The notes under the pieces were generated by a model. The model made no database searches. It worked only from the letters and a program-made list of their open reading frames with translations, and had not been told where the DNA came from. The translations under genes and the position numbers were made by a program. A DNA stretch of 64,000 nt from positions 1 through 64,000 of IMG/VR virus record IMGVR_UViG_3300032284_002783. One strand, given 5' to 3'. How positions within the stretch are numbered: position 1 is the stretch's first letter; every line of letters starts with the position of its first letter. This document shows positions 15,065 to 41,699 of this stretch, piece by piece. Source of the DNA: a virus.

Positions 15065-15625
15065 ATGTCTAATATTTATTATGTATATGCATATATAAGA
15101 ACTAAAAACTCAGCAACTGCTAACGCAGGTACACCATATTATATTGGTAAAGGTAAAAATCGTCGTGCATGGGAAAAGCATATAGTACCACGGCCAATAG
15201 ACAAAAATTATATAGTTATTGTGGAATCAAATTTAACTGAAGTTGGCGCACTTGCATTAGAGCGCAGATTAATAAAATGGTATGGCGGGAAAGATTTAGA
15301 AACAGGTATATTACTTAATAGGACAGATGGCGGCGATGGCGGATCTAATATTGTTTATGAAAGGACATTAGAGCATAAACAGAATCTGTCAAATGCATTG
15401 AAAGGCAAACCAAAATCTAATGAAATGAAAAAGAAATTGTCCATTACAAACACAGGACGAAAACTATCAGAATCTACGAGGAAGAAAATATCAGAGAATA
15501 ACAAAAACAGGGTATTATCTGACGAAGTATTAGCTAAGCTTAAAATGCCAAGATCTGATGATATAAAAAGAAAAATATCAGAGTCGGTTAAAAACTCTTA
15601 TCGTTTAAGAAGATTAAAACACTGA
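15065..15625 (+). mobile_element. Free-standing GIY-YIG homing endonuclease with NUMOD3-like repeats
   Basis: YYVYAY...[18 protein letters not shown], repeated (H/T)K.KISE modules; TAAATA and AGGAG upstream. Confidence 0.85.
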
Positions 15626-21162: not shown

Positions 21163-21483
21163 TTATGCTTCTTCAATTTCACAGCGAAGTGGGAAGTTGT
21201 TAGTCCTAGCACTTAAAATAGTTTCATCACGCTTTTGTGTTGCAACTTCATGGCTGTATGTGCCTGCGATACCACGACCAGTTTCATGGATGCGTAGTGT
21301 TAGGCTGCTAGCATCATCAAAGCTTTTATGGAAAATATTCATCAACACAAGAATAACGAATTCAACCGTGGTGCTGTCATCATTGTACAGCACCACGTTG
21401 AACATACCAGGCGCACGCATGGTTACTTTTGTAGTAGTGTCAGTTTGTTCTACGGTATCAATAGCAGCCACGCATGCCTCCAA
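21163..21483 (-). CDS. clpS: N-end rule adaptor ClpS
   Basis: VVLYNDDSTTVEFVI..L...IHETGRGIAGTY..EVA.QK...FPL. Confidence 0.92.
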   Translation of the reverse strand: MEACVAAIDTVEQTDTTTKVTMRAPGMFNVVLYNDDSTTVEFVILVLMNIFHKSFDDASSLTLRIHETGRGIAGTYSHEVATQKRDETILSARTNNFPLRCEIEEA

Positions 21484-21485
21484 TA

Positions 21486-21962
21486 TTAGTCTTTTTTACC
21501 TTCAATCAAATTGCCGGTTGGATTAGTTCCAATGGCAATCTTTCGAGGCTTCATTGCTTCGGGTAGCTCATATGCAAAGTCAATAGTGAGCACACCATCT
21601 GACAGGTTACTAGTTGTTACCTGAATGTATGCATTCAAGTAAAAAGTACGACGGAAGCTACGTCCAGCAATACCCTTGTAAAGATATTTCTTATTATCTT
21701 CCTTGGCGATTTTGCCTTCAATAGTTAGTACGCCGTCCTGCAGTGTGATATTGATATCATCTGCAGTAAATCCTGCCACTGCCATACTTAGACGATAGTT
21801 ATTTTCGTCAATCTGCTCTAGATCGTATGGTGGATAGCTTGTACCAGCTGAATTTCTCACCTGATCAAGCATACGGAAAGTAGGTTCAAAACCTACGGCC
21901 ACACGATTGAGATCACGAAAAATATCGTCAAAGTAATCAGTCATTGTAGTAAGTCCTCGCAT
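21486..21962 (-). CDS. ibpA: Small heat shock protein (IbpA/Hsp20)
   Basis: SYPPYDL, MAVAGF, YLYKGIAGRSF, PEAMKPRKI. Confidence 0.93.
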   Translation of the reverse strand: MRGLTTMTDYFDDIFRDLNRVAVGFEPTFRMLDQVRNSAGTSYPPYDLEQIDENNYRLSMAVAGFTADDINITLQDGVLTIEGKIAKEDNKKYLYKGIAGRSFRRTFYLNAYIQVTTSNLSDGVLTIDFAYELPEAMKPRKIAIGTNPTGNLIEGKKD

Positions 21963-22077: not shown

Positions 22078-22392
22078 TTAGTCGTTTTTTGGCAAATCAA
22101 TAGGTGATTTGTTAATTACCTTTTGTGTCTTAGGCTTTTTCTTACGAGGGGTTTCAATTTCCATAATCTGAGCGTACTTTTTCTTCCAACGAAGTTTAGC
22201 TTCACTCATTCTTTGACGCTTTAGAACACTCTGTGGTGTAAAGTTTTTACGCTTACGCAGTTCTTTATTCACACCTTCGCTATTCATTCTGCGCTTTAGC
22301 TGCGCCATAGCACCTTCTAAATTACCGTTCTTTACAATTACAGTCATACCCTTTTTACGTACACCAGGTTCGTCGTTCATATCATTCTCCAT
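22078..22392 (-). CDS. rpsU: Ribosomal protein bS21
   Basis: VIVKNGNLEGAMAQLKRRMNSEGVNKELRKRKNFTPQS..KR. Confidence 0.82.
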   Translation of the reverse strand: MENDMNDEPGVRKKGMTVIVKNGNLEGAMAQLKRRMNSEGVNKELRKRKNFTPQSVLKRQRMSEAKLRWKKKYAQIMEIETPRKKKPKTQKVINKSPIDLPKND

Positions 22393-22428: not shown

Positions 22429-23007
22429 CTATTTATTTTTTGGCATTGCGGAAACGATTGCCAATATAGATTTTCCATCTAGTGTAGGAGCTTTTTCAAC
22501 TCTACATTCTCCAAGACCTGCTAAAAAGTTTTCCATTATAGCGAAGCCTTTATCTGTGAAACTTAGCTCACGACCTTTAAACTTGATCACAATTCGTACC
22601 TTAACTTCATCAGCTAAAAATTCTTTAGCATGATTAATTTTAATCTCAAGATCGTGTGTGTCTGTTACAGGACGAAGTTGTATTTCTTTTACTACAGTGG
22701 CATTTTCGCGTGCCTTCTTTTCCTGTTCTTTTCTAGCACGTTTTAAGCTATACACATGCTTGCCAATATCGACTATCTTAACCACAGGAGGTTTAGCCTC
22801 AGCTGTAATTTCAACCAGATCTAACCCCTGATCTCTAGCCATTTTAAGTGCTGCCTTGGCATTTACAACGCCTAGGCTGTTACCTTCTGCATCTAGCAAT
22901 CTTACTTCAGGATATCTAATTTGCTCATTGCAAACCAGCCCGGCACGTACAGGATCTTCATATCTGCGTGCAGATTTAAAATTTGGATTTATATACCTAT
23001 TGTTCAA
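22429..23007 (-). CDS. infC: Translation initiation factor IF3
   Basis: NEQIRYPEVRL, GLDLVEI..AKPPVVKI, VKEIQLRP..HDL, FKGRE. Confidence 0.93.
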   Translation of the reverse strand: MNNRYINPNFKSARRYEDPVRAGLVCNEQIRYPEVRLLDAEGNSLGVVNAKAALKMARDQGLDLVEITAEAKPPVVKIVDIGKHVYSLKRARKEQEKKARENATVVKEIQLRPVTDTHDLEIKINHAKEFLADEVKVRIVIKFKGRELSFTDKGFAIMENFLAGLGECRVEKAPTLDGKSILAIVSAMPKNK

Positions 23008-24245
23008 GATGCTTCTCCAGTAGCTTGGCTAAAAACTTTTAATGGTTTATTCATATTTTCCACAGTCTCCTTTGTAATACATACTTTCCTTACTCCTTCT
23101 TTGTAAAGGCTAGGTAGCTCAAATTGAATATCAACAAGTATATTCTCAATGATACTTCTTAGGCCTCTTGCACCAGTCTTTCTTGCCATTGCCTGTGCAG
23201 CAATTGCTTGCAGACTTTCTTTTGTAAACTCTAATTCAATTTTGTCAAGTGAAAAGAGTTTTTGAAATTGTTTAACTAATGCATTTTTTGGCTTTGACAA
23301 AATTTTAATTAATGCGTCTTCATTCAAATCCTCAAATGCAACAATAATTGGCAAACGTCCTATCATTTCAGGAATGATTCCAAACTTTACCAAATCTTCT
23401 CCTTTGACTTGTTTTATTAAGTCATAGTTGGATGTAGTTGTGTCTGGCATTTTGATGCTGGCATTGAAACCAATCGAAGTATCGTTTTCTCCAACCCTGC
23501 GTTCAATTATTTTATCCAGTCCTTCAAACGCACCGCCAACAATAAACAGGATTTGCTTAGTATTAATTGTTACAAACTCAGCGTTGGGATTTTTGCGACC
23601 GCCGTTTGGTTGTACTTTTACATCACATCCTTCGATCATCTTAAGCAGAGCTTGCTGCACACCTTCGCCGCTTACATCGCGTGTGATTGATGTGTTTTCG
23701 CTCTTTCGACCTTTTTTGTCAATTTCGTCAATATAAACAATGCCGCGTTCAGTCTTGGCAATATCTTGCTCAGCAGCTTGATAAAGTTTAGCGATGCAGT
23801 CTTCTACGTCCAACCCCACATAACCACTTTCAGTTAAACTAGTAGCGTCTACAATTGCCAATGGCAGATCCAACATTCGAGCAACAGTTTGAATAGTATA
23901 AGTTTTACCTGTACCACTGCCACCGATAAAGATCATATTACTTTTATCAATTTCAACTCCGTCAATAACAGGATTATTGATTCGTTTGAAATGATTGTAG
24001 ATAGCTACTGCTAGAGTTTTCTTAGCATAATCTTGCCCAACTACATACTCATCTAACTTATTTTTAATAACCTGTGGATGAGCTTCGGTTTCTTTAACAA
24101 TCTTTGGCTTTTCTTGTTTGATTATTTCGTACGATAGAACGATACATTCGTCGCAAATGTATACGTCATTGCCTGCCACAAGTTTGCTTACTTGAGTTTG
24201 ATTTTTTTCGCAGAAACTGCAAGAATGAATAATTTTATTAGTCAT
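23004..24245 (-). CDS. clpX: ATP-dependent Clp protease ATPase ClpX
   Basis: CSFC/ICDEC zinc finger, [32 protein letters not shown] loop, TGARGLR. Confidence 0.96.
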
Positions 24246-25817: not shown

Positions 25818-26222
25818 TTATTTAGAGATTTTGCCGGTACCAACTTCTATGAAATCGTGCTCGCGGTCTAAAAATTTGTATCCTGCAGAAATTACATCAA
25901 AGTGCTGGCCAATGAAGTCTAATACTTCTTCTACATTAAATGGTGCACAGCTATACAGGTCAAATTGCATCTTGCTATTGTTTGGTTCTGGCAAATTCCA
26001 TATATGCATTGTGCAATGACTTGTGGTAAGAATCACTGTAGATGTAATTCCTTCATTACCTAAATCATCACACCATGCAGTTACAGGGTCGATCATAATT
26101 CTCATTCTTACATGATTGACCATGCCTTTCATAAATTCAGTTACAAAATTACACTGGTTGGGACCAGGAGGATTTTTAATATCAGCATTAATCAAAAGGT
26201 GCAAGTGCGCTGTTGGTTTCAC
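25818..26222 (-). CDS. speD: S-adenosylmethionine decarboxylase proenzyme
   Basis: GNEGIT..ILTTSHCTMHIW, QFDLYSCAPF. Confidence 0.82.
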   Translation of the reverse strand: MKPTAHLHLLINADIKNPPGPNQCNFVTEFMKGMVNHVRMRIMIDPVTAWCDDLGNEGITSTVILTTSHCTMHIWNLPEPNNSKMQFDLYSCAPFNVEEVLDFIGQHFDVISAGYKFLDREHDFIEVGTGKISK

Positions 26223-28735: not shown

Positions 28736-29284
28736 TTATTTGAAAAACAAATGACTGCCTATTCTTATCGAATTACGGCCTCCGCCAACACTGTGGTGAT
28801 TGAAATAGATCGCGCCGTTACTTGGATCAGCTAGTTCTCCGCGATAAACCTTGTATGCCGTAAGCTGAACCTTTTGCCATGTCTCGTATTCAATTCGCCA
28901 TTTTGGCGAAATATTAAATCCTGCCCAAATGAATTGGTATGCCTTGCGTCCATTTACATAATTATATTGAAAAACATTTTCACAGATATCGGCACTCCAA
29001 TGCTGAACCTTTGTTCTATTAATTGGTACATGTGCTACAGCTATTTGTTCGTTAACCGTGCCACCCCTTGCTTCAAAATAAAGATTCCATGCTAAACATT
29101 CAACATTTTCTTTGTCAGCGTTTGTTAAATCTTTTGTTTGATCTATATTCAAAGGTAGAACTTCTCGCAAAACAGGAACCAATTTTTTATCATATAAAAT
29201 TGATTGCTCGGCTGCTGATGTTTGCAATGGAAAAACGCACGCATATATGATTATTAAACAGAGAATTTTTAAAAATAATTTCAT
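28736..29284 (-). CDS. Cell wall hydrolase (SleB/Hydrolase_2)
   Basis: Signal/TM segment; CLAWNLYFEARG, QFIW, GAIYF, IGSHLF. Confidence 0.85.
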   Translation of the reverse strand: MKLFLKILCLIIIYACVFPLQTSAAEQSILYDKKLVPVLREVLPLNIDQTKDLTNADKENVECLAWNLYFEARGGTVNEQIAVAHVPINRTKVQHWSADICENVFQYNYVNGRKAYQFIWAGFNISPKWRIEYETWQKVQLTAYKVYRGELADPSNGAIYFNHHSVGGGRNSIRIGSHLFFK

Positions 29285-29425
29285 TAAGATCCTTATTAGT
29301 CGGAGGCTGGAATTTTTTTCCAATCAAATAAAATATACTATGATATTCACCGACCGTTGTGTTGGTGATATTATTTAAAAATCACGTTTGTGACTTAAAA
29401 CTCAGTATAACTTAACTGAGTATTT

Positions 29426-29875
29426 TTAGGCGATGTAGAGAGAACTGCGGCCAGAATGTTCTCTGACCTCTACTGTCTTTATGATCAGTCGAGATATATT
29501 ACTTTCATTCAAGTGATTTTGAATAAAAAGAAAAACATGCTCTGCAAACTTTTCTATTCCTACACCTGGCATGGTTTTTAGATTGATTATACCAAGATCG
29601 CATAATCTATTGAATTCGTCGATTGCCGGATCATCATCACTTATTATAGTTGTGTTATGAAATGTAGATCTTAGATAATCATTTATAATTATTTCCAATG
29701 AACAAGGAACATTAGTTAAATCTTGATCTAAATTAAAACTTTCAAAAACTATTTTAACCGATATATTAAATCCTTTTAAGATTTTATCCCGATCGTCTAT
29801 AGCCCGAAAATTTCTTACTACACACGATAGATTCTCATTATGATCATATGTAATGGTAGATACATATCGTCCCAT
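29426..29875 (-). CDS. QueD/6-pyruvoyl-tetrahydropterin synthase-like protein, catalytic motifs degenerate
   Basis: YVST.TY..S.....R, TFHNTTIISDDDP, GIEKFAE, VEVREH; the C..HG motif is replaced by DKILKG. Confidence 0.6.
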   Translation of the reverse strand: MGRYVSTITYDHNENLSCVVRNFRAIDDRDKILKGFNISVKIVFESFNLDQDLTNVPCSLEIIINDYLRSTFHNTTIISDDDPAIDEFNRLCDLGIINLKTMPGVGIEKFAEHVFLFIQNHLNESNISRLIIKTVEVREHSGRSSLYIA

Positions 29876-29963
29876 ATTTTATTGTAAATGAAAAATTTGA
29901 TTTTGCAAATCAGCATTGATTTTAACAATCATTCTTGTATACTAGAAAAAACATGAGGAAAAA

Positions 29964-30317
29964 ATGAATAAGATCGGTGAGCAAGATCTAAAAGACTGGA
30001 ATACCTATATCAACAAACTTTGGTCAGAACCGGAAACATTTTTCAAACCAAAGAAAGCTCGGCAAGATGAACAACAGATTTTAGATCTGCACGGCATGAC
30101 GATTCAAACTGCCTTTAATAAAACTAGACAGTTTGTTCAGCGTCATTACGATATTGGTTCAAAACTTATTACAGTTATCACAGGCAAGAGCGGCAAGATT
30201 GCCGAAGAGTTTCCTCACTGGCTAAACAATCTTCCTTGCATTCACAGCTATGAACAACTAGAAGATAGCAGGGGACAAAGCGGTGCTTACATTATTCGGC
30301 TGAAAAAATCTAATTAA
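29964..30317 (+). CDS. Stand-alone Smr-domain endonuclease
   Basis: LDLHGMT...VITGKSG...PHWL...GQSGAYII.LK. Confidence 0.88.
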   Translation: MNKIGEQDLKDWNTYINKLWSEPETFFKPKKARQDEQQILDLHGMTIQTAFNKTRQFVQRHYDIGSKLITVITGKSGKIAEEFPHWLNNLPCIHSYEQLEDSRGQSGAYIIRLKKSN

Positions 30318-30670
30318 TCTTGGTGTCTAAACCAAAGAAATGTAGCGTCCTCAAGGAAGCTGTTAATGTCGCCTATAAATTCAGCCGTGTGGGCCCAGTG
30401 CCATTGACCTGTCTTTTTATTATTGAATGGCAGACCATTAAACGTCGTGTTAGGCAAATCTAACCTTACGTTACTAGTAAAATCACAAACCCAATTGTTA
30501 GCATACAAACTATGCATTACACCTCTGTCACTTTGTTCCAAAATGATATTAGGACTTGAACATTGATAGGTAAGACAGCCATATTGTTTACTACCTACCA
30601 TGTATTCGGGCAAACGAATAGTATTATCCACAAATAGTAGTTTATCGGCGTATTCAATTGGAAATTTCAT
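30314..30670 (-). CDS. Hypothetical protein
   Basis: ORF directly behind TTGACA-16-TATAGT. Confidence 0.6.
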   Translation of the reverse strand: MKFPIEYADKLLFVDNTIRLPEYMVGSKQYGCLTYQCSSPNIILEQSDRGVMHSLYANNWVCDFTSNVRLDLPNTTFNGLPFNNKKTGQWHWAHTAEFIGDINSFLEDATFLWFRHQD

Positions 30671-30727
30671 CAAAATACTATAACATATTCTAAAATCATG
30701 TCAACTGTTAAGTAGATAGATAATTTT

Positions 30728-30760
30728 TGCTGCAACTGCTAAATATGTTGCACTGCACAA
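30728..30760. promoter_or_regulatory. PhaR-like operator (TGC-N-GCA repeats) with overlapping TAAATA
   Basis: TGCTGCAACTGCTAAATATGTTGCACTGCACAA. Confidence 0.45.
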
Positions 30761-30796
30761 TAAAATCTATTATATAATAAACAGGAGGTAGTTATT

Positions 30797-30958
30797 ATGT
30801 GTAAGAGAGTGAACCGTTGGTTTAAAAAGGTATGGAAAAACATGTCTCAAGATCCAATTGAAGCATATCTCAGCCAAGCCACAGATTCTGTGGATTTGGA
30901 GCATCGTATGCGTACCGTAACCTATCGTATGATTAACAAACCTACATGGAGACAGTAA
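30797..30958 (+). CDS. DUF3563-like small protein (53 aa)
   Basis: AGGAGG RBS; EAYLSQATDSVDLEHRMR. Confidence 0.7.
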   Translation: MCKRVNRWFKKVWKNMSQDPIEAYLSQATDSVDLEHRMRTVTYRMINKPTWRQ

Positions 30959-30959
30959 A

Positions 30960-31127
30960 ATGGAAAATATGCGTGAAATGAACGAAACACTAGTAAAGTA
31001 CATGGTAGAGTCAACTCGTCAAGCTGTTGAGTTTGGTCAGAAGGCTTGGACCGACTATGTTGAACTATCCAAGACTATTATGAATAAAGTTCCAGGTATG
31101 GATACTTGGACTAAAAACAAGAAGTAA
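30960..31127 (+). CDS. Small amphipathic helical protein, possibly phasin-like (55 aa)
   Basis: GGAG RBS; MENMREMNETLVKYMVESTRQAVEFGQKAWTDYVELSKTIM. Confidence 0.55.
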   Translation: MENMREMNETLVKYMVESTRQAVEFGQKAWTDYVELSKTIMNKVPGMDTWTKNKK

Positions 31128-31145
31128 AAACTACTAAAAACTTAC

Positions 31146-31176
31146 AAAAAAAGCTAGCTGAAAAGCTAGCTTTTTT
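31146..31176. terminator. Bidirectional intrinsic terminator
   Basis: AAAAAAGCTAGC-TGAAAA-GCTAGCTTTTTT. Confidence 0.8.
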
Positions 31177-31179
31177 CTT

Positions 31180-31413
31180 ATCGTAGGCTGCTCAATGTCA
31201 GCTTGTGGAGCTTTTCCAACAGTTACTTTGGATTCTTATCTTCACCGTATCAGGTTGTCATCTTCGGTGAATAGTTGGTTGTGTCCCTTTAACGATGTCC
31301 GGTACTCCGATCCGCTCAACCCTGCACGTTGCTCTCACTCACACTTTATAAGGTCTGATTAATAAATCGCCTTACACCCTGTACGTCTGCGTGTCTATCC
31401 ACGCCGCTACGAT
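31180..31413 (-). ncRNA. Unassigned tRNA-like structured RNA (about 234 nt)
   Basis: Ends pair AUCGUAG/CUACGAU; D-like hairpin GCGUG-GAUAGA-CACGC; T-like hairpin GCUG-ACAUUGAG-CAGC; TATTAATA 5 nt upstream, terminator downstream. Confidence 0.6.
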
Positions 31414-31443
31414 ATGTATATTAATACATAACAGTTTGAAAAA

Positions 31444-32091
31444 CTACAATAATACTAATTTTTCATGTTTAACTATACACTTAGGATCAACATAAATTTC
31501 CCAGCCTTTTTCCTGTGCTGTCCAACAAAATCCAACATCCTCAGCACAGAAATCATGGAAGGTTTCGTTTGAAATCCATCGTGGTTGAAACCATGGATAA
31601 TCTAATGATTCCATCACTCCTTTTTTGATTGCAATAAAACCAAATCCTGTATAGCTGACCTTAAATAGAGCAGATTTTGTTTTTAAATCATCGTCATTTA
31701 AGAACTTAAATGTCCCATAATCTTTTAAATGTGCATAGTTGAGGTTTTCTACTACAGGATAATTGATGCCGTCACTCATATGATATAATCCAGCAACAAT
31801 GTCTCTATTGTGATTTAACAATGTTAGTATAGAATCAGCCGACCATACAACATCTGAATCAATCCATATTTGATAGTCATAGTCTATTTGTCCTTGCCAC
31901 GGTTTTTGTTTTTTACCATTAAGATTATTACCGCCTAAAATTCTATTTCGACAATAATAAACAACGGGATCATAATCCATGCAATATGCATAAGATATGT
32001 TATTCTGTGATAGAAGATTTATTGTATGATTCCAACTATTAAACCAGTTGTTTGAAAAAGATTTACCCGGCAGACAGAATATAATTCTCAT
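31444..32091 (-). CDS. GT-A fold glycosyltransferase
   Basis: WIDSD, YTGFGF, AEDVGFC. Confidence 0.8.
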   Translation of the reverse strand: MRIIFCLPGKSFSNNWFNSWNHTINLLSQNNISYAYCMDYDPVVYYCRNRILGGNNLNGKKQKPWQGQIDYDYQIWIDSDVVWSADSILTLLNHNRDIVAGLYHMSDGINYPVVENLNYAHLKDYGTFKFLNDDDLKTKSALFKVSYTGFGFIAIKKGVMESLDYPWFQPRWISNETFHDFCAEDVGFCWTAQEKGWEIYVDPKCIVKHEKLVLL

Positions 32092-32819
32092 TATCTGTTT
32101 TCTCTCCAGGGGAATCCCATAGGGTACTTTGATTTCATAACTGAATTACCTTGAATAAAAAAGTCAGCTGTAACACTACCTGGGTTTCCGTCTAATCTAT
32201 AACAAACAGTGGCCTTACCAGTGCATTTATAGTTTGGATCATATTGATCAATTATTGAATAAAATCTTCTATCGCCGCCCCATCCGCTATACCATGCAGA
32301 TGCTAGGCCTACAATAGTTTCTTTTCTAATACAATAAGTAGATGTATCAACTAATCTATGTTGATCTGAAAGATATATAGGCCAACGTCCTAGGCTTTCA
32401 CAATCATCATCACAAATATAGTTAAGATTGCTATCATATATTTTTCTCAAACTATGACACCAATGTAAATTGTAGCAATTAATAGTGTCTATCATCGTTT
32501 GCACGTGATCGGGTAAGAACCAATTATCTTCATCACAATATAAAATATAATCATGATTAAACAAAAAACTAGCTGCTGCTAGTATTCGATGTCCATACCA
32601 TCCATCTTTTCCAGTATTTTCAGGTAAAACACAATGCTTGACGGCGGGATATTTTTTTAATATCTCTAGTGACCTACCAGCAAATTCTGGACCATCTATA
32701 ATAGACCAAACATCTATCTTATCAATTATTCTATTAAATTTTTGATTTGTAGCCCCATTTAAGGCTTGAACCAGTTTTTCCGTACCTATAGTTGGTATGA
32801 CGATTACAGCAGATACCAT
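32091..32819 (-). CDS. GT2-family glycosyltransferase
   Basis: VIPT, IIDG, CDEDNW, GGDRRF. Confidence 0.82.
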   Translation of the reverse strand: MVSAVIVIPTIGTEKLVQALNGATNQKFNRIIDKIDVWSIIDGPEFAGRSLEILKKYPAVKHCVLPENTGKDGWYGHRILAAASFLFNHDYILYCDEDNWFLPDHVQTMIDTINCYNLHWCHSLRKIYDSNLNYICDDDCESLGRWPIYLSDQHRLVDTSTYCIRKETIVGLASAWYSGWGGDRRFYSIIDQYDPNYKCTGKATVCYRLDGNPGSVTADFFIQGNSVMKSKYPMGFPWRENR

Positions 32820-32854
32820 ACCAAATTATAGCCAATGCCGCATAAATTTCCTAG

Positions 32855-33583
32855 TTAAAAATACCACACAAAGTTCTTAACGTATGAATCTCGATCGATT
32901 TCATTTAATGATAAAAACTCTTCTTCCATTTTGCGCCATTTATCCATCAATGGTATTGAAATAGATGGATACCAATAACATCCAAGAGCATTTCTGCTCC
33001 AAGGAAATCTTCCTTTTATTCTAAACTCGTTGAGCATATCAATGACTATCCAACGAAGATTGCTGCCAGAATCAATACTTAAACTATTTCTATCAAAAGA
33101 TGTAGTGCTTAGCCATTCTCTAACCTTTAGTCGTATAGGCAATGGTGCTAGTCCAATGGTTGTATTAACGACATTACTAGTCCAAACCATAGAACTGCTT
33201 CGATGTGCTTGATCTATTACACCAGGAATACCCCGTCTGATAGGCACCAAATGATCTCTGGTTCCCATCCATGGTAATATGCTACAAGCATGATTAACAC
33301 GATTTCCAGAATGAATAACTGGTTCAGACAAAACACTAGAATAAAAACATCTGTAATCAGCAGTTGGAATTTTAGATTTTCTAAATCTTACAGCTTGTCG
33401 TGAAGATAGATAAGATGGAGGTTCCCAGAGACCAATAACATCTTTTTCTATAGTTGGAGTTTTGATTTCACCATAAACACCCTGTGCAAATCTTTCATTT
33501 CTTTTCTGTTTGTGTACTAGATGCTTTTTAACATCTTTAGGCAGCTGATCTGTCGCTAGGTACATTGGCTGTTTCGGTCTCAA
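32855..33583 (-). CDS. Hypothetical protein, possible HNH-like nuclease
   Basis: CFY...TRDHLVP...SNVVN; weak match. Confidence 0.5.
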   Translation of the reverse strand: MRPKQPMYLATDQLPKDVKKHLVHKQKRNERFAQGVYGEIKTPTIEKDVIGLWEPPSYLSSRQAVRFRKSKIPTADYRCFYSSVLSEPVIHSGNRVNHACSILPWMGTRDHLVPIRRGIPGVIDQAHRSSSMVWTSNVVNTTIGLAPLPIRLKVREWLSTTSFDRNSLSIDSGSNLRWIVIDMLNEFRIKGRFPWSRNALGCYWYPSISIPLMDKWRKMEEEFLSLNEIDRDSYVKNFVWYF

Positions 33584-34538
33584 TAAAGATTTTTTTACCG
33601 TGTTTGCGAAGTTTGAATCCTTTTACATATAGCTCATTTTTTGAATCAAATGTAGCATTCTGCAGGCCGTATGCAAACTGTTCAATATGCCCGATACTAT
33701 AACCATAAACATGGTTGATTCCAAGAATATGAAGAATAAGATTTTTAATTCTAACCATGCTGAGATCTTTGATTTTTGTCCAATCAAGCATATTAGATTC
33801 AATTTCAGCATTTTTCAAATCATTCTCGGCTAATGCTGTGGTCAATTCCCAGGCTTCGCCTAGTAACTCAATACTTTTGTTAATATTGATATCTGCAATA
33901 TCAAATCTTTCAGCGATCACTGGCCACACAGCATGACGAATATAGTTTCGATCATATTTCAAATCTGCATTACTCGTATCTTCACAATGTTTGATGTCAT
34001 TCATTGCAGCATATGCCTCAATGGTGCTACGACTCACGTTAAGTAAAGGTCGAATAACATTTACATCTGCATCGTACCAGCAAGTTGTAACAGCAGGCAT
34101 ACTCTTAAGTCCGCGAATGCCACTGCCGCGGAATAGTTTTAGAAAGAATGTTTCAATTTGATCATTCATATGATGCGCCAACACTAGGCTGTCTGCACCT
34201 GTTGCACAGAATGCCCTATAACGTGCTTGTCTAGCAGCATACTCAACATTTTTACCAAAGACATCAATTGATACCTTTTGTACTGTACATTTAAGACCAA
34301 GATTAGCACAGGTGTGCTCTACCATAATGGCCCACTCGGCACTTTGTGGATGAATGCCGTGATCAATGTGCATGACTTCAAAAATGTCAGGTAGGTTATT
34401 TTTGTTTTGTGCTAACCAATGTAGAAGTACCATGCTGTCAATGCCACCACTGACACCAATAATACATTTCTTTGAATCTTTGATAGAAGATTCAAACCAT
34501 TCCAAATTGATTAACTGCATTTGAGGTTCCATTTGCAT
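33537..34538 (-). CDS. tilS: tRNA(Ile)-lysidine synthetase (C-terminally short)
   Basis: SGGIDSMVL, IDHGIH, AARQARY, AHHMNDQIETFF, RGSGIRGL, RPLL, EDTSN, RNYIR. Confidence 0.92.
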   Translation of the reverse strand: MQMEPQMQLINLEWFESSIKDSKKCIIGVSGGIDSMVLLHWLAQNKNNLPDIFEVMHIDHGIHPQSAEWAIMVEHTCANLGLKCTVQKVSIDVFGKNVEYAARQARYRAFCATGADSLVLAHHMNDQIETFFLKLFRGSGIRGLKSMPAVTTCWYDADVNVIRPLLNVSRSTIEAYAAMNDIKHCEDTSNADLKYDRNYIRHAVWPVIAERFDIADININKSIELLGEAWELTTALAENDLKNAEIESNMLDWTKIKDLSMVRIKNLILHILGINHVYGYSIGHIEQFAYGLQNATFDSKNELYVKGFKLRKHGKKIFIETETANVPSDRSAA

Positions 34539-34563
34539 AGAATATACTGAATTAAAATATAAA

Positions 34564-35016
34564 TCAAGGCAATAATGCTGTATCGACTAATTTTTTCAAC
34601 TTATTAGCAGCTCGTTCGCTGGCAAATAACTGTTCAACTCCCCAATGCAGGGGTTTTGGCAAATCATCAATAGTGGTCCACATATAATCACAGCTTTCCC
34701 AGTTCAACTTTGGATGAAAAGTTTTTTCGATTATACTTACATATGTATAAAACTTGAAACGCGGTGCATGCGTTTCATTGGTATAGAGTAAATGCAAATC
34801 ACGAGGAATTTGATATCCTACCTCTTCGCGGCATTCTCTTATTGCTGCAACCTTTGGATCTTCATTACCATCTACTCCGCCCCCGGGAAAGCACCATGTT
34901 AAAGGTGTCGGAACAAAGTCTGATCTTTTAATCAGTAGAAATTTCTTGCTCTCTGGTACAAAGAGTAAACAGCCTGCACCATATTTTGTTGGATATAAAA
35001 GATCATTTGAACGCAT
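34564..35016 (-). CDS. Nudix hydrolase
   Basis: GGGVDGNEDPKVAAIRECREEVG Nudix box. Confidence 0.92.
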   Translation of the reverse strand: MRSNDLLYPTKYGAGCLLFVPESKKFLLIKRSDFVPTPLTWCFPGGGVDGNEDPKVAAIRECREEVGYQIPRDLHLLYTNETHAPRFKFYTYVSIIEKTFHPKLNWESCDYMWTTIDDLPKPLHWGVEQLFASERAANKLKKLVDTALLP

Positions 35017-35024
35017 ACCAATAT

Positions 35025-36383
35025 TTATCTTTCAACAGCAGGCATCTTTTTTAGCTCTTGAATTTCCTTTCTATAAATTGCACGCATTTTCTCTTTGTCT
35101 TTTAGAATAGCATTATAATCTGCGATAATTGCCTTAAATTCTTTTATTTTATCCACAGTTTCTGCATAACTATCCTTAGCCCAACGATAAGAAGGTAAAG
35201 AGCTAAGACGATCAACTTGTCCATCATCTAGTGTAATGCCTTTGGTAATCTTCCTTATTTTGTCGACGACATCTTGTTTGTCCTTAGCTTTGGTCAAAAA
35301 TGCAGGCAACCCTTGATCCATACATTCCTTTATTGCAAGATACCAATTCAAATTGCGGTTAGCATCTGCTAGCAGTTTTTCATATCTAACTTTATAAAAA
35401 CCAAGTCTCCATTCAACAAAGTCTCTAATCAACTTTTCAGCAGACTCATATTGCTTGATAGACGTACCATTCCAATCAAGAACAACAATTCGTTCGGTTG
35501 TTTTACTACGTAGTTTTAAGAAGTCAATTGCCTTGTCTTTTGTCCAACCATCAATACTTCCACGTTTAAACTTGATTTCAACTCGTATATTCTTTGTGCT
35601 TTTATCCGTATAATTTTGAATCTGATCCTCGTCCTCCATACGATTTAAACGCTCTTTGAATTTTTCCAAGTTAAGAGTTGGAGGCAGTTCGGTAACTATA
35701 ACGCTGCTCCCATCAATTTCTACTTTACCAGAAAACTCATAGCTATTATTGCCAAGAGATTTTACTGTGGCATTAAGAAAATCATAATACGGTAACAGCT
35801 CAGGTAATTTCTTTTTGTCGTCAAGTGCTGCAAGTGTAGCGTCAATGAGTGCATCGAGGGATCTGGGTAATATTTCTGTACTCCAACCAACAGCAATACC
35901 ACTAACTCCATTAAGAAGAACTATCGGAATAAGTGGCAAAAAGTGTTTAGGTTCTAATACTGATCCATCGTAGTTTTCTTTTAAAGGAATAATGTCATAA
36001 TCCTGATATATTAAATTCTCAGTATGAGTACTTTTCTTTACATATGTATATCGAGGAGCACCCCAATCAGTTGGACCAACTCTGGTGCCAAATGCACCAA
36101 TACCATGAAGCAAGGTAACGTTGTTGCAATAGGGTGCAGCCATCAAACTTATAGTATCACATGCTGCTGCATCTCCGTGTAGATAAACGTTCTCGCTGAT
36201 CATTCTACCAGCCAAGCTAATTGTTTTAATCTTGTCTGATTGACTTTTCATTACGAACAACGCTTTACGCTGTGCATCTTTTAAACCATCGCTAACTGAC
36301 GGAATGCCGCGGCTTTGACAGACATAAATGCTGTAGTCTCGGCTGGTGTCTTTGATAAAGGTAGTTGTGTCTTTGTATGTCAT
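35025..36383 (-). CDS. Type II DNA topoisomerase, GyrA/gp52-like subunit
   Basis: RGIPSVSDGLK..QRK, YLHGD, GAPRYT active-site Tyr, SGIAVGW. Confidence 0.93.
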   Translation of the reverse strand: MTYKDTTTFIKDTSRDYSIYVCQSRGIPSVSDGLKDAQRKALFVMKSQSDKIKTISLAGRMISENVYLHGDAAACDTISLMAAPYCNNVTLLHGIGAFGTRVGPTDWGAPRYTYVKKSTHTENLIYQDYDIIPLKENYDGSVLEPKHFLPLIPIVLLNGVSGIAVGWSTEILPRSLDALIDATLAALDDKKKLPELLPYYDFLNATVKSLGNNSYEFSGKVEIDGSSVIVTELPPTLNLEKFKERLNRMEDEDQIQNYTDKSTKNIRVEIKFKRGSIDGWTKDKAIDFLKLRSKTTERIVVLDWNGTSIKQYESAEKLIRDFVEWRLGFYKVRYEKLLADANRNLNWYLAIKECMDQGLPAFLTKAKDKQDVVDKIRKITKGITLDDGQVDRLSSLPSYRWAKDSYAETVDKIKEFKAIIADYNAILKDKEKMRAIYRKEIQELKKMPAVER

Positions 36384-36392
36384 TTCTTTTGC

Positions 36393-36635
36393 CTAGTTTG
36401 AAAGTTGATATAAAACAAGATCTTCCATGGTTTCAAATTCAATGAACCACTTTATGTATGTATATACAGAATCTGCATGAATACTCCTCCAAACTTTAGC
36501 TGTTGGAGCATGTTGTCTACACCAAGATTCTGCCTTAACAGTTTCAGTATAGTCAATAAATGGCAGATAAGAATCTAGATCTATATCAGTTATGACTCTT
36601 TTTTCATTTATTGTGAGTTTATATTCATTAGTCAT
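36393..36635 (-). CDS. Small paralog-family protein
   Basis: AESWCRQH...IEFETMEDLVLYQL. Confidence 0.6.
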   Translation of the reverse strand: MTNEYKLTINEKRVITDIDLDSYLPFIDYTETVKAESWCRQHAPTAKVWRSIHADSVYTYIKWFIEFETMEDLVLYQLSN

Positions 36636-36729
36636 TTATCATTGATTTTACTGGATTTCTAATAGATTTTGCAAGTGCTTTATTGAAACTTGAATGTTGT
36701 AAATAGTGTGCTAGCAAGGAGTAATAGAT

Positions 36730-37518
36730 ATGGATAGGTTTTCATTACCAACACAAGAACAAGTAGAATTAATTATTGGCAGAGCACAGACTGTTGGGAC
36801 ACCAATACGAGCTGTTGCAGATTCTTTAAGAATTGGACCAACGATTGCTATTCAAAATCTATCAACTGTACAAACAGATAGTGCCGTACAGGCCGCTGTA
36901 GCCGCAATGCAAATTCAATTAGATCGCGATTGGCAAGCTGCTTGGGGAACTACAGCAACACTGATGTTTTACTCACGCAATCAAAGCATTCCTTCGACAT
37001 ATTGGCCAATTTATATTCTTGATACTACCGATACCAGCGGAGCATTAGGTTATCATGATGAGCTAGTCGGCGGTCGTCCATATGGTCGTGTATTTGCCAA
37101 AACTGCAGCACAATACGGTTATAGTTGGACTGTAACATTAAGTCATGAATTGCTGGAAATGATGGCCGATCCTTATGTTAACCTTACAGTCTTTAATCAA
37201 ACAACTTCAAAGGCAGGTCGCTTATATGCTTATGAAGTAGGGGATCCTGTTGAAGCAGATATGTATGGATACAGAATCAACAACATTTTAGTAAGTGACT
37301 TTGTGTTTCCTAGTTGGTTTGATACTTATGCAACAGCTAGAGGCACACGTTACGATCAAACAAATCATGTGTCAGCACCATTTCAGATCTTAACTGGAGG
37401 ATATATGAGTGTGTTTAATGTTACCAATGGATCAGGTTGGACAATGATCACACACAATAATATCGAAACAGCAGAGCCTCCTCTAAGCGATAGAAATCGT
37501 TGGCTTAGAGACGATTAA
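36730..37518 (+). CDS. Zincin-like metalloprotease
   Basis: GALGYHD, SHELLEMMADP, EVGDPVE; TAAATA and AGGAG upstream. Confidence 0.7.
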   Translation: MDRFSLPTQEQVELIIGRAQTVGTPIRAVADSLRIGPTIAIQNLSTVQTDSAVQAAVAAMQIQLDRDWQAAWGTTATLMFYSRNQSIPSTYWPIYILDTTDTSGALGYHDELVGGRPYGRVFAKTAAQYGYSWTVTLSHELLEMMADPYVNLTVFNQTTSKAGRLYAYEVGDPVEADMYGYRINNILVSDFVFPSWFDTYATARGTRYDQTNHVSAPFQILTGGYMSVFNVTNGSGWTMITHNNIETAEPPLSDRNRWLRDD

Positions 37519-39401
37519 AGGCTAATCCAGTCTTTACGATCATCAGCTCTATCAGCATTGAATATAAGATCCAATGCATCTGATAGATTTCCATCGTCTA
37601 CAATAGGTATTAATTTTGGACTAGCTAGACTGTGAATCCAGTCGGCTTCTTCTAAACTACCCAATCCCTTAGCTCGTGTTGGCTTTGGACAGTTCTTCCA
37701 ATCATCTGGATTATACTGTTGATAATCATCTGCATACCAATAAAACCTCTTCTTGCCTTTTTCTTGTATGATAAATGGTGTTTGAAACGCATAGAAAAAT
37801 GCTGGAAGCTTAGGGTCAAATAACTCAGGCCAATGCAAATAAAAGAAATTTATAAGCAAGGCCGTGATGTTAGCACCGTCTGGATCTTGGTCAGCTGCTA
37901 GATATACTTTACCATAGCGTAAATCTTCTCTAACTGCAGTCTGACCTAATCCTACGCCTATTGCAGCCATCAAGTCTGTAATTATTTGATTTTCAATGAT
38001 AATTTTTGCACTTTCACCCCGAACATTAAGAATCTTACCTCGTAATGGTAGTGCTCCATATATTTCGGGATCTCTCACAGCGCTAACCATTGTTTTAGCA
38101 CTATCACCTTCTGTAATAAGCAAAATACATTTAGTTCTGTCTTTACCGTTAGCATCCAGTAATTTTGGAACCTTTGCACGTAATAGCTTACGATTAGCCT
38201 TTGCTAAATCAGCATCCTCTTTTTTCTGCGTACGAGCCGCACAACGTTCATAAATTGCATTAACCCAAGATTTATGCTGTTTAATGATCGTTTTAAAGGT
38301 GTTTTCATTCTCTAGTGTTTGCTTAATCCATTTATCAACATCATCATTGATAAGTCGAGTTTTACTTTGACTATCAAAGTTAGGAGCATGCATAAAGGTC
38401 ACATTATAAATTAACAACCCTTCGCTTATGTCAGACCTATTTGGTGTTAGTCCGCGTCTCTTATTTTCACGTTCTAATGCCTTTAGCATACCACCAAAGA
38501 ATAATCTCTTGAATGTATCTATATGCTGACCTCCATTGAATGCAGGAATATCATTAACTGTACTGTGTATATATTCACCGTCTTTGGCAAAACCGGGTAC
38601 TAGATAGTAGTCACTTTTAAACTTGTCGCCGCTAATGTTTATAGTAGCAACGTCGCAATCACTAAAAAGTGTTTTTTCAATATTTTTACCAACAGTAACA
38701 CGTTCACCATTGAATAGAAACTTGATGCGTGGATGATTAGCGGCAACTTCAAACACTCTAGCCTTAATAAAATCTAATGGAATAAGTGCCTTCTTGAATA
38801 CAGTTGAACTTAGGGTGAACTTAACATAAGTGCCTGTTTTGCCATTACTGCTGCTGGTAATCTTAGGTTTACCAATTTCTAGCTCAGGTATAAGTTCTGA
38901 TCCTTCATGAAATGACTGTTGAAATCTCTTACCATCTCTCCTAATATCGACTGAGAACTCAGTAGAGCAGCTTACAACGACACTAGCTCCTATACCATTG
39001 GTACCTCTGACTTCTTCTCTGGTACCAAAGTTACGTCCCGCTCGCGCCTGTGTTAAGGCTAGTGTTGCCTTGTGCATTCGTTCATTTTCGTCGTAGTCAA
39101 TTGGAATACCGCGGCCGTCATCGCTAACTGAAAATGTTAATGTAGATGGATCATAAGTGATTTCTATTTTACTGCCGTGATTATGACCAACAACCTCGTC
39201 TAGCGCATTGTCGAACACTTCTCTAAAAGCACAATATGCAGCAGGTGTCCAAGAACTATCAACTGCTTCAAGCTTTGATCCGGTCCAGTTTACGATAGTT
39301 TGGTTGTGAACATTTCTACTGCCCAAATACATTTCTGTGCGATTTCGATGGTGCTGCCAGTCAGTTAGTTTAATGATTTCGTTTGATATTTTTTCAGCCA
39401 T
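37515..39401 (-). CDS. Type II DNA topoisomerase, GyrB/gp39+60-like subunit
   Basis: EVFDNALD, DDGRGIP, GTNGIG, EGDSA, PLRGKILN, DQDPDG, KGLG. Confidence 0.95.
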   Translation of the reverse strand: MAEKISNEIIKLTDWQHHRNRTEMYLGSRNVHNQTIVNWTGSKLEAVDSSWTPAAYCAFREVFDNALDEVVGHNHGSKIEITYDPSTLTFSVSDDGRGIPIDYDENERMHKATLALTQARAGRNFGTREEVRGTNGIGASVVVSCSTEFSVDIRRDGKRFQQSFHEGSELIPELEIGKPKITSSSNGKTGTYVKFTLSSTVFKKALIPLDFIKARVFEVAANHPRIKFLFNGERVTVGKNIEKTLFSDCDVATINISGDKFKSDYYLVPGFAKDGEYIHSTVNDIPAFNGGQHIDTFKRLFFGGMLKALERENKRRGLTPNRSDISEGLLIYNVTFMHAPNFDSQSKTRLINDDVDKWIKQTLENENTFKTIIKQHKSWVNAIYERCAARTQKKEDADLAKANRKLLRAKVPKLLDANGKDRTKCILLITEGDSAKTMVSAVRDPEIYGALPLRGKILNVRGESAKIIIENQIITDLMAAIGVGLGQTAVREDLRYGKVYLAADQDPDGANITALLINFFYLHWPELFDPKLPAFFYAFQTPFIIQEKGKKRFYWYADDYQQYNPDDWKNCPKPTRAKGLGSLEEADWIHSLASPKLIPIVDDGNLSDALDLIFNADRADDRKDWISL

Positions 39402-39468
39402 TGGTTAACACTTTGTTTTTATTTGTCTAAGCATACTTAAAAGTAGCATAAAGTCAAATAAGCAAAAA

Positions 39469-39498
39469 TATTGGAGGTAAGTTTCCTTACCTCCAATA
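39469..39498. terminator. Hairpin, probable terminator
   Basis: TATTGGAGGTAAG-TTTC-CTTACCTCCAATA. Confidence 0.65.
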
Positions 39499-39709
39499 AC
39501 ATTTGCCTAAATTAATTTAATCATTTACAAATTTAGATCAATTCTATCGCCTCAAGGACGATGGCTGATCCTATATAATTTATATTCTACAATCTAAAGT
39601 AAAAAAGTATTTATCTAATATTTTTAATCATCATAATCAATAAAATGGTAGGTTATTCTGTTTCAAGGAAACCTACCAAAACCCATTTAAAAAATTATGG
39701 GCATCTGGT

Positions 39710-39877
39710 ATGGGCAAACCAAATTTTATAAAAGGTAAGACCGCATGGAACAAAGGAAAAAATAATCCTAATGCTGCCGAAAACGGTAAAAAAGGAGCAT
39801 TATTACAATCTATCAAGGTCATTGGTCGAAAACGAAAATATAATGATGACGGTACATGGTCATGGTATTACCCATAA
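39710..39877 (+). pseudogene. Remnant of homing endonuclease DNA-binding tail
   Basis: 55 aa KGKTAWNKGK..GRKRKY.DDGTWSW; no nuclease domain upstream. Confidence 0.5.
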
Positions 39878-39880
39878 TAA

Positions 39881-39908
39881 AATAAGGGAGCATTAATGCT
39901 CCCTTATT
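39881..39908. terminator. Intrinsic terminator after tmRNA
   Basis: AATAAGGGAGCA-TTAA-TGCTCCCTTATT. Confidence 0.8.
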
Positions 39909-40220
39909 TGATCTTTTCTGTTTCTAAGAAGACCGATCTCAATCTTAGGCTACTGCCTGAAGAAACGGAGCATTATCATTTGCTGCGTTTATTGTTTTTG
40001 ATCTATAAAGCGATCATCCTGCTATCTACTTCAATACCTTCAGCGCCAATCGATCCCAGTTATCCCCCATCAAAAGCACAGCCCGCTTTGCCTTTTCAGC
40101 TTATCCAAAAAACGACCTAGCATGTTTGCAACCATGTTATCCAGGCGTCTGTGCTTGTGGTGGAGGATTGGGGAGTTGAACCCCAGTCTTGATCACCTAT
40201 ATATTGCTATCAACAACAGC
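39909..40220 (-). ncRNA. ssrA: Two-piece (circularly permuted) tmRNA
   Basis: Acceptor piece with T arm and AUCCUCC-A-CCA (ends 40158); intervening segment; coding piece starts GGGGGAU (40068) giving G3:U70; tag (A)ANDNAPFLQAVA* at 39945-39986. Confidence 0.92.
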
Positions 40221-40225
40221 TAGTA

Positions 40226-40233
40226 TATTTATA
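40226..40233 (-). promoter_or_regulatory. T4-type late promoter for tmRNA
   Basis: Exact TATAAATA. Confidence 0.75.
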
Positions 40234-40258
40234 ACACAGATTTTTTAAAAATCAAGAC

Positions 40259-40822
40259 TTATTTGCGGCCTTTATTAAGTGGAGGATTTATTGCATCAAT
40301 ATATAATAATTCTAAATCTTTCTGTATGGCAGCATTTACAGTGGCCTTTGTCCATCCTATGTTAACTGGCACTTGTACCAATGGACATTTTTTCGCCCAG
40401 AGACTAACCTTTTCTTGCATTACATCATTATGCAAGCTGGTTCTTATAAACCAATCTGTGTCGTCTTTACCATAATTATGCGTACATAGCCTACCAAATC
40501 TATTTGTGCTTTTAGGTATTGGTTGCGGCCATTGAACACTTGAATACAAGTAATCAGTGCCAATACTAACTTCGCCAACTAATAAACAATTGGTAGATTT
40601 TATTCCTAAAGGTTGGCTAGTTTCACCAACTTTCATAATATCAATGCCACTAACAATAAAATAAATCCAACTATTATGTGTGGACCATAATAGAGCGTCA
40701 TCTATGTTATAAAGTTGCCAGCCATAATTATCATCGGAGTATTCATGATATACATCACAAACTTTTTTAAATCCATCGCTGATATAATTATAGACGTTGT
40801 TTGATATAAATTTTTCAGACAT
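40259..40822 (-). CDS. Hypothetical protein, GIY-YIG-like
   Basis: WIYFIV...KVGET...R...E...PPLN. Confidence 0.55.
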   Translation of the reverse strand: MSEKFISNNVYNYISDGFKKVCDVYHEYSDDNYGWQLYNIDDALLWSTHNSWIYFIVSGIDIMKVGETSQPLGIKSTNCLLVGEVSIGTDYLYSSVQWPQPIPKSTNRFGRLCTHNYGKDDTDWFIRTSLHNDVMQEKVSLWAKKCPLVQVPVNIGWTKATVNAAIQKDLELLYIDAINPPLNKGRK

Positions 40823-41699
40823 TTTTATAAGTCATCATGCTTAGGTATTGCCAACAAAATGTTGCCGCAGCTAACGATGTGATATCACTGTGATCATAAG
40901 GAGGAGAAACTTCCACACAATCCATGCCAACAAAATTAATATCTTTACATAGATCTAAAAGTTCTCTCATCCATACAGTTGTAAGCCCTGCAATTTCTGG
41001 TGTTCCAGTTCCCGGAGCAAATGCTGGATCTAAACAATCAATATCTAATGATAGATAAACAGGTGCGTCACCTACAGTAGCTTTAATTATTTCATGCATA
41101 GCCAATGGCGACCACCTCAAGGCTCGCTGAGCTGAAAATGTATGTCCGCCTGCTTTTTGAAGAAATTGCCTTGCAGTTTGATCAGCAGGACTTCTTATTC
41201 CAATACTGATAGTTTTACGTGGATCAATTAGTTGTTCACATATAGCATTATACAGCCATGTGCCGTGTCCTATTGGTTCTCCAAAATGATTGTCCCATGT
41301 ATCACAATGTGCATCAAAATGTAATACTGCAAGATTTTGATGCCTCTTAGATAGACTACGCAATATTCCCAATGTTATTGAATGATCTCCGCCTAATGTT
41401 ACACAGTGCATGGATTTTAATCTATCCATTGCCATCTCTACTTCCTGTAACATCCTCATTGTATTTCCAGATGTCAACGAAATATTACCAACATCGCAAG
41501 TGGTTGTAGTTAAATCAACTGGATATAACTCATGCTGTCCGTCGGTGAGCATAAGGCTTGTTTGTCTGATAGCATTAGGGCCCATTCGGGCACCACTTCT
41601 AAAAGAAGTGGCACCGTCGGTGGGTGCTCCAACTACTGCATAGGGTTTGAGAGCAGTTCCAACATTACAAAATGTCGGAAAATTCTGAAATGGTAACAT
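40815..41699 (-). CDS. speB: Agmatinase (ureohydrolase)
   Basis: RSGARMGP, GGDHSIT, DAHCD, SLDIDCLDPAFAPGTGTPE, EVSPPYD. Confidence 0.9.
   Translation of the reverse strand: MLPFQNFPTFCNVGTALKPYAVVGAPTDGATSFRSGARMGPNAIRQTSLMLTDGQHELYPVDLTTTTCDVGNISLTSGNTMRMLQEVEMAMDRLKSMHCVTLGGDHSITLGILRSLSKRHQNLAVLHFDAHCDTWDNHFGEPIGHGTWLYNAICEQLIDPRKTISIGIRSPADQTARQFLQKAGGHTFSAQRALRWSPLAMHEIIKATVGDAPVYLSLDIDCLDPAFAPGTGTPEIAGLTTVWMRELLDLCKDINFVGMDCVEVSPPYDHSDITSLAAATFCWQYLSMMTYKNV

Follow-up and report, generated by a model that had tools for sequence, protein, structure and literature searches.

A putative miniature SmrB-like protein, a two-piece tmRNA, and ClpX within a conserved translation and protein-quality-control block of huge phages

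Introduction

Rescue of ribosomes that collide on a messenger RNA (mRNA) follows, in Escherichia coli, a route in which SmrB cuts the mRNA at the collided ribosomes, transfer-messenger RNA (tmRNA) acts together with SmpB to tag the nascent chain, and ClpXP degrades the tagged product. To our knowledge, the cleavage of mRNA by SmrB in response to collisions is a discovery of 2021-22 that is so far confined to bacteria. Homologs of SmrB, tmRNA, and ClpX are encoded in the viral DNA analyzed here, i.e., positions 1-64000 of the 76,657-base IMG/VR record IMGVR_UViG_3300032284_002783 (this 64,000-base stretch is referred to as the window). A preliminary description of this DNA proposed that the phage supplies all three steps of the route to counter defenses that stall ribosomes. 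The analysis presented below shows that each of the three genes is intact, seems functional, and possesses the features of its canonical step, but neither one linked pathway nor its direction against defense nucleases is supported by their distribution or by gene organization. They probably form part of a conserved translation and protein-quality-control block of a huge-phage lineage, in which each gene would do its canonical job with host partners, as an independent accessory.

What sets the SmrB clade apart among stand-alone Smr proteins is a helix at the N terminus that wraps ribosomal protein uS2 and contains a conserved “--xxxa” motif (E10-D-QAL-F15 in E. coli); SmrB deprived of this helix does not bind the ribosome (Saito et al., bioRxiv 10.1101/2021.08.16.456513). 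The same work showed that the DxH motif is essential for catalysis in SmrB and is missing from SmrA, and that in the RNA-binding GxG loop of E. coli SmrB the central residue is dispensable (bioRxiv 10.1101/2021.08.16.456513).

The Smr protein

The open reading frame (ORF) of 117 amino acids (Table 1) matches the Pfam Smr family PF01713 (E 3.8e-13, 49.8 bits, cut-off 25.7), and the stand-alone Smr with intact DLHG named in the preliminary description is thus confirmed, at 29964-30317 on the plus strand (LDLHG, residues 40-44). In the AlphaFold2 (AF2) model (pLDDT 83.8), a helix formed by residues 6-21 is followed by a poorly defined linker (residues 22-38) and a beta-alpha-beta-alpha-beta-beta domain. 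A Foldseek search with this model matched the Smr domains of MutS2, YdaL/SmrA, and N4BP2, as well as SmrB on the E. coli disome (7qgr_v). The phmmer search of the protein against the PDB gave only a chance match (uS2, E 0.45), which was not used, and no family was found in PHROGs.

The catalytic residues D41 and H43 are unchanged throughout both family alignments. In the alignment of 52 members, 25-55% identical to the window protein, only W12, D41, H43, G74, W86, and G107 are invariant; the tryptophan of the putative hook is therefore constrained as strongly as the catalytic residues. The hook of the window protein reads Q7-D8-LKD-W12, with the family consensus being [ED]D-xxx-W, so that the first acidic position is occupied here by glutamine. 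At the place of the GxG loop of SmrB the protein has G74-K-S76-G77, and some relatives have GKG-G.

Among named cellular proteins, the closest to the phage Smr are stand-alone Smr proteins of Alphaproteobacteria, which have about 190-200 amino acids and ED-x-A-L-W near the N terminus. When the phage Smr domain was compared with them by hhalign, an E-value of 9.4e-20 and 38% identity were obtained, and a comparison restricted to the N-terminal 20 columns was in register with the cellular ED..W (P 4.6e-4). The hook motif is also kept in the Smr proteins of Agrobacterium phage Atu_ph07 (EELELW) and Sinorhizobium phage Phosso (TERKLW). Among 1.84 billion metagenome representatives, the short form is present in about 212 clusters at 50% identity (E 1e-10 or better), almost all of 100-155 amino acids. 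A pattern-seeded search of 185,579 species genomes did not find the short form but only the long alphaproteobacterial one, at 25-35% identity. A pattern search of viral contigs with the single protein gave nothing, although relatives were recovered by an alignment-based search. No description of a phage SmrB was found in the literature searched. The most fitting interpretation of the phage Smr is that of a miniature relative of SmrB that would dock on the ribosome.

The two-piece tmRNA

A permuted tmRNA was called by ARAGORN at 39854-40251 on the minus strand, with the tag AANDNAPFLQAVA, and the Rfam model RF04321 (tmRNA_permuted) is matched over its full length (positions 1-213) at 39945-40220 with 82.6 bits (gathering score 47, E 2.7e-14). 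The presence of a tmRNA, as stated in the preliminary description, is therefore well founded, while the end of the locus given there, 40233, falls in a promoter-like stretch just upstream of the gene. The coding piece lies about 89 nt downstream of the acceptor piece. Its first bases, GGGGGAU, are complementary to the AUCCUCC that precedes ACCA, and the pairing includes G3.U70. G3.U70 is the alanine identity pair. It is claimed for the window tmRNA only, the regular-expression check made on the tmRNAs of relatives being too crude. The promoter-like element in front of the gene is to be read as a consensus match, and a promoter scan of the region yielded 76 sites against 71.3 expected, i.e., not above chance. 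The tag of the window tmRNA ends in AVA; the 15 that ARAGORN called among relatives resemble it in kind, each with LAA or MAA at the end. Neither ArfA nor RF-1/ArfB domains were found in the record.

Further RNA features were seen in relatives. In one of them (G020), a full permuted tmRNA match (G020:C1:93668-93876) is accompanied, about 650 bases away, by a second, partial one covering model positions 33-105 (94527-94658). In two others, ARAGORN reports tRNAs with a CUA anticodon, of the amber suppressor type and labelled tRNA-Pyl, near the tmRNA (L106:3070-3145 in G032 and L111:1887-1961 in G029).

ClpX

The IGF loop of ClpX docks ClpP, and in E. coli the RKH loop recognizes the ssrA tag. 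The ClpX reported at 23004-24245 was borne out: the protein of 413 amino acids, encoded on the minus strand, scores 560 bits with the NCBIfam equivalog NF003745 (cut-off 359) and gives an E-value of 5.8e-139 in the alignment with ClpX of E. coli (8e91). Kept in it are CxxC..CxxC of the C4 zinc finger, GSGTGKT, GYVG, DEIDK, the sensor residues, and SIGF; an [IMV]GF loop was found in 80 of 80 related phage ClpX proteins. The RKH loop is not kept in the window protein, which has RKN. This reading, together with the pore-1 sequence GYVGLD, is common to 24 of 24 ClpX proteins of at least 54% identity (L002-L024 and L058), a count that leaves aside more distant relatives, which did not fit the search pattern. 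The window protein and L002-L024 thereby have a clade signature, GYVGLD where other proteins read GYVGED or GYVGDD, and RKN where they read RKH. Co-variation of the RKH loop with the ending of the tag was considered and ruled out, as RKN is clade-wide while the tags of relatives end in LAA.

In G020 (L023:1591-3909), ClpX is 772 amino acids long, its zinc finger being separated from the AAA module by an in-frame LAGLIDADG insertion near Walker A; this insertion is probably an intein. A 519-amino-acid protein, encoded at 24255-25814 on the minus strand and matching tetraspanin-like, UPF0242, SMC-related, and peptidoglycan-binding families only below threshold, lies just upstream of ClpX wherever it was detected in relatives, the most distant included.

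Lineage, distribution, and linkage

The completeness of the record was estimated by CheckV at 18%, so that the whole phage genome should measure some 400 kb or more; the GC content is 32-41%. The window ClpX used as a query matched 143 viral contigs, and the relatives with 70-74% identity include one complete genome of 452,799 bases. The nearest deposited phages are Phosso (469 kb) and Atu_ph07 (490 kb). In both, ClpX adjoins the gene of translation initiation factor IF3, and a small Smr protein is present along with the two subunits of topoisomerase II; in Phosso, Smr lies beside a QueD-like gene, the same adjacency as in the window. Sinorhizobium phage AP-J-162 contains one tmRNA, and its ClpX is adjacent to IF3 and topoisomerase (PMC11242549). 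No close DNA relative was found among deposited phages by megablast of window positions 29000-41000. The lineage is that of huge phages (about 340-520 kb) related to Atu_ph07, Phosso, and AP-J-162. Alphaproteobacteria are the most likely hosts, since the nearest deposited phages infect Sinorhizobium or Agrobacterium; this assignment is in keeping with the two-piece form of the tmRNA and with the alphaproteobacterial origin of the cellular proteins closest to Smr.

Of 48 viral records with a related ClpX, 22 contain Smr, 22 a permuted tmRNA, and 13 the two together, where independence would give 10.1; this count is confounded by shared ancestry and record length. The co-occurrence analysis suggested in the preliminary description thus does not reveal linkage beyond shared ancestry. 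A Clp-protease-family gene was found in 18 of the 48 records. The distance between Smr and ClpX is 2-7 kb in 17 of the 22 records with both, and that between tmRNA and ClpX is 6-26 kb in all 22. However, when 48 ORFs of the window (14-46 kb) were compared by tblastn with 20 regions from relatives, the whole block of 20-30 kb turned out to be collinear, in the order ClpS-Hsp20-bS21-IF3-ClpX ... QueD-Smr ... topoisomerase-tmRNA-arginase. The closeness of the three genes is ordinary synteny, because the entire block is collinear.

Co-transcription or tight operon linkage of the three was not found either: Smr stands alone on the plus strand, a promoter-like site and a terminator of its own flank the tmRNA gene, and ClpX heads a string in which IF3, bS21, Hsp20, and ClpS follow it directly on the same strand. 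The genes are dispersed, as had been noticed, in the sense of three transcription units on two strands; nevertheless, they belong to one conserved collinear block. In complete or near-complete genomes, the genes occur in every partial combination (Table 2). The SmpB gene of one of these (G049, complete, 524 kb), located at C1:330541-330969 (E 1.6e-57), is the only one among 53 related records. Smr, tmRNA, and ClpX are most likely independently inherited accessory genes, separately transcribed and separately lost, and not a dedicated three-gene system.

Table 2. Occurrence of ClpX, Smr, and permuted tmRNA in complete or near-complete relatives
Genome	ClpX	Smr	Permuted tmRNA	Other
G001	yes	yes	yes	divergent 184-aa ClpP-like gene
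Phosso	yes	yes	yes	no SmpB
G050	yes	yes	yes	
G049	yes	yes	yes	SmpB
G041	yes	yes, short form without hook	yes	true ClpP
G012	yes	no	yes	true ClpP
G029	yes	no	yes	
Atu_ph07	yes	yes	no	no SmpB
G052 (76% complete)	no	yes	no	

Proposed roles and alternative explanations

The following functions may be proposed, by homology, for the three genes. The phage Smr would dock on uS2 via its acidic-xxx-Trp helix, and its DxH domain would cut mRNA between collided ribosomes. The two-piece tmRNA, presumably charged with alanine through G3.U70, would enter, with host SmpB, ribosomes stalled on broken mRNAs and add AANDNAPFLQAVA. The phage ClpX would dock ClpP by the IGF loop and unfold substrates, perhaps including tagged chains; its ClpP partner could be that of the host or a phage one encoded outside the fragment. 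The three steps could follow one another as in E. coli. The likely benefit would be that ribosomes are kept free during the long, translation-heavy infection by an AT-rich phage, and a counter-defense role is a possible hypothesis.

Several observations weigh against this picture. With the SmrB equivalog NF003432, the Smr protein scores 22.2 bits and does not reach the cut-off of 128, and it is equally weak on the models of MutS2 (28 bits) and SmrA (26 bits). Its likeness to the SmrB hook is that of a short motif. The linker between hook and domain has about 20 residues compared with about 75 in E. coli SmrB, and the docking geometry may therefore differ. Recognition of the window tag by ClpX is uncertain, because AVA stands at its end in place of the LAA degron and the ClpX loop has RKN for RKH. 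SmpB (PF01668) has no match in the whole 76,657-base record, and it is absent from all 48 ClpX-bearing records and present in one of five further related ones (52 of 53 lack it). ClpP has no family match in the record either. The expectation that SmpB and ClpP come from the host or elsewhere agrees with this lack of matches, within a record that covers about 18% of the genome.

In the alternative put forward originally, Smr, tmRNA, and ClpX would have been co-selected as one rescue system that clears ribosomes stalled by host defense nucleases that cut tRNA or mRNA. All three steps are indeed present and intact, five of the complete or near-complete relatives (G001, G041, G049, G050, and Phosso) contain the whole trio, SmpB is also encoded by G049, and the three genes lie at the short distances described above. 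These distances, however, reflect the collinearity of the whole block, and the joint occurrence in 13 records suffers from the confounding already mentioned. Moreover, a permuted tmRNA is missing from Atu_ph07 and Smr from G012 and G029, and of the three genes G052 retains Smr alone; the genes lie on different strands in different transcription units, and the RKN loop of ClpX does not co-vary with the tag ending. Such a dedicated system is considered unlikely. Smr might also be a DNA-nicking endonuclease of recombination, repair, or attack on host DNA, with no role in translation. In the PDB it is matched best, by sequence as well as by structure, by Smr domains from MutS2 and from YdaL/SmrA of E. 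coli, relatives are named “DNA-nicking Smr family endonuclease” in one source, and the gene sits among those of nucleotide metabolism and topoisomerase. The names, however, are automatic annotations, and the top structural match, B. subtilis MutS2, has itself been solved on collided ribosomes (8qpp, 8r55). The N-terminal tryptophan motif, common to the ribosome-docking SmrB clade, is invariant, and DxH, absent from SmrA, is intact. Action at the ribosome is favored over DNA nicking because DxH and the acidic-xxx-Trp helix are kept and W12 is invariant. That Smr acts only on DNA, which had been named as one finding that would overturn the three-step proposal, is spoken against by the SmrB-clade hook helix, by DxH, and by the alphaproteobacterial stand-alone relatives, and it is improbable.

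ClpX is known to remodel lambda O and MuA. The phage ClpX could accordingly act chiefly on non-tagged substrates, remodeling replication or host proteins or, with IF3, bS21, Hsp20, and ClpS, taking over host proteostasis, while tmRNA would mainly recycle ribosomes. The adjacency of ClpX and IF3 is conserved down to Atu_ph07, Phosso, and AP-J-162, a replication role of phage ClpX was proposed by the authors of PMC11242549, Atu_ph07 keeps ClpX without a permuted tmRNA, and the window combines a tag ending in AVA with an RKN loop. On the other hand, such a function is compatible with degradation of tagged proteins as well, the tags of relatives end in the canonical LAA or MAA, and the IGF loop shows that the protease-coupled mode is kept. 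This explanation is a serious possibility, though short of probable. More speculative, and rather unlikely, is a phage-controlled route, in huge phages of Alphaproteobacteria, made of a phage-specific mini-SmrB on host uS2, the phage tmRNA, and ClpX, which would keep ribosomes free when collisions are caused by host nucleases or codon mismatch, or turn collision-triggered cleavage on host messages. Cultured relatives with these genes exist (Phosso and AP-J-162, on Sinorhizobium), so that the mini-SmrB idea can be put to a direct test. Independent accessory genes that each do their canonical job within the block, with host partners, are still the explanation regarded as rather probable.

The three-gene “pathway” adds little to the translation genes known in huge phages. 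What is of more weight is the large family of proteins of 100-155 residues that are SmrB-like in their catalytic and putative ribosome-docking motifs and whose members of visible source come from huge phages. If this reading is true, viruses would act at the collision-sensing step of translation quality control, beyond rescue (tmRNA) or initiation (IF3, bS21).

Other genes of the block

The coordinates of the features discussed above and of the neighboring genes are collected in Table 1. Within the same conserved block are also genes for a SAM decarboxylase-like (25818-26222) and an arginase-family protein (40815-41699), hinting at phage polyamine metabolism beside translation genes. Elsewhere in the window, a GOLLD RNA (Rfam RF02032, 202.6 bits, threshold 150) was found at 15619-16087 on the minus strand, with tRNA-Gly(UCC) embedded at 15946-16021.

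Table 1. Features of the window, with positions, strand, and supporting evidence
Feature	Position	Strand	Evidence
Putative miniature SmrB-clade Smr protein, 117 aa (P0001)	29964..30317	+	Pfam, AF2, Foldseek, hhalign
Predicted N-terminal helix, residues 6-21, with D8-x3-W12 as candidate “--xxxa” uS2-hook motif of the SmrB clade	29979..30026	+	alignment, model
DLHG, residues 41-44, catalytic DxH motif	30084..30095	+	translation; LDLHG = residues 40-44
Two-piece (permuted) tmRNA gene, first base of Rfam match to terminator	39880..40220	-	ARAGORN, Rfam, sequence
Acceptor piece: T arm and 3' acceptor strand ending CCA	40158..40220	-	Rfam alignment, sequence
Tag reading frame AANDNAPFLQAVA, GCA resume codon (39986-39984) to UAA (39947-39945)	39945..39986	-	ARAGORN, sequence
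Promoter-like TTGATT-16-TATAAA, 7 nt upstream of tmRNA start	40228..40255	-	consensus match only, read from sequence
Terminator-like 13-pair hairpin closing the tmRNA gene	39880..39909	-	stem scored on + strand; U run on - strand read from sequence; inside beta_tmRNA model alignment
ClpX, 413 aa: Zn finger, Walker A/B, GYVG pore loop, SIGF ClpP-docking loop, RKN for RKH	23004..24245	-	equivalog, alignment
Translation initiation factor IF3, overlaps ClpX stop codon	22429..23007	-	phrog_9787 E 1.8e-47; TIGR00168 154.6 bits
Ribosomal protein bS21	22078..22392	-	PF01165 E 6.4e-12; TIGR00030 33.1 bits vs cut-off 28.95
Small heat-shock protein, Hsp20, IbpA-like	21486..21962	-	family match
ClpS adaptor	21163..21483	-	PF02617 E 6.9e-26
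QueD-like 6-pyruvoyl-tetrahydropterin synthase, conserved divergent neighbor of Smr	29426..29875	-	phrog_2389
PP-loop ATPase, ATP_bind_3 family that holds TilS	33537..34538	-	PF01171 E 3.3e-55

Comparison with described systems

When set beside the E. coli succession from SmrB through tmRNA-SmpB to ClpXP, the record holds homologs of three of the five components, with their key motifs. It differs in that SmpB and ClpP are not in it and the genes are not co-regulated by position; the functional order would be that of the bacterial route. The phage Smr resembles E. coli SmrB (YfcN; PDB 7qgr) and the proteobacterial stand-alone SMR clade in its stand-alone Smr domain and DxH, and it resembles the SmrB clade in the N-terminal helix with the acidic-acidic-xxx-aromatic motif, its nearest named cellular kin being the alphaproteobacterial members. 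It is shorter than E. coli SmrB (117 compared with 183 amino acids) and has GKSG instead of GxG. In comparison with the tmRNAs known from huge phages (Al-Shayeb et al., 2020; PMC7162821), from AP-J-162 (PMC11242549), and from Phosso, the tag of the window ends in AVA instead of LAA or MAA, and the window record lacks SmpB; what is shared with them is a tmRNA beside translation factors in a huge phage and, with Phosso, the two-piece form. With regard to the ClpX-IF3 pair of Atu_ph07 (MF403008) and the Sinorhizobium phages, the window has bS21, Hsp20, and ClpS directly in the same string, and Atu_ph07 has no permuted tmRNA, whereas the nearby topoisomerase II subunits, small Smr, and QueD are shared and the ClpX proteins are 52-54% identical.

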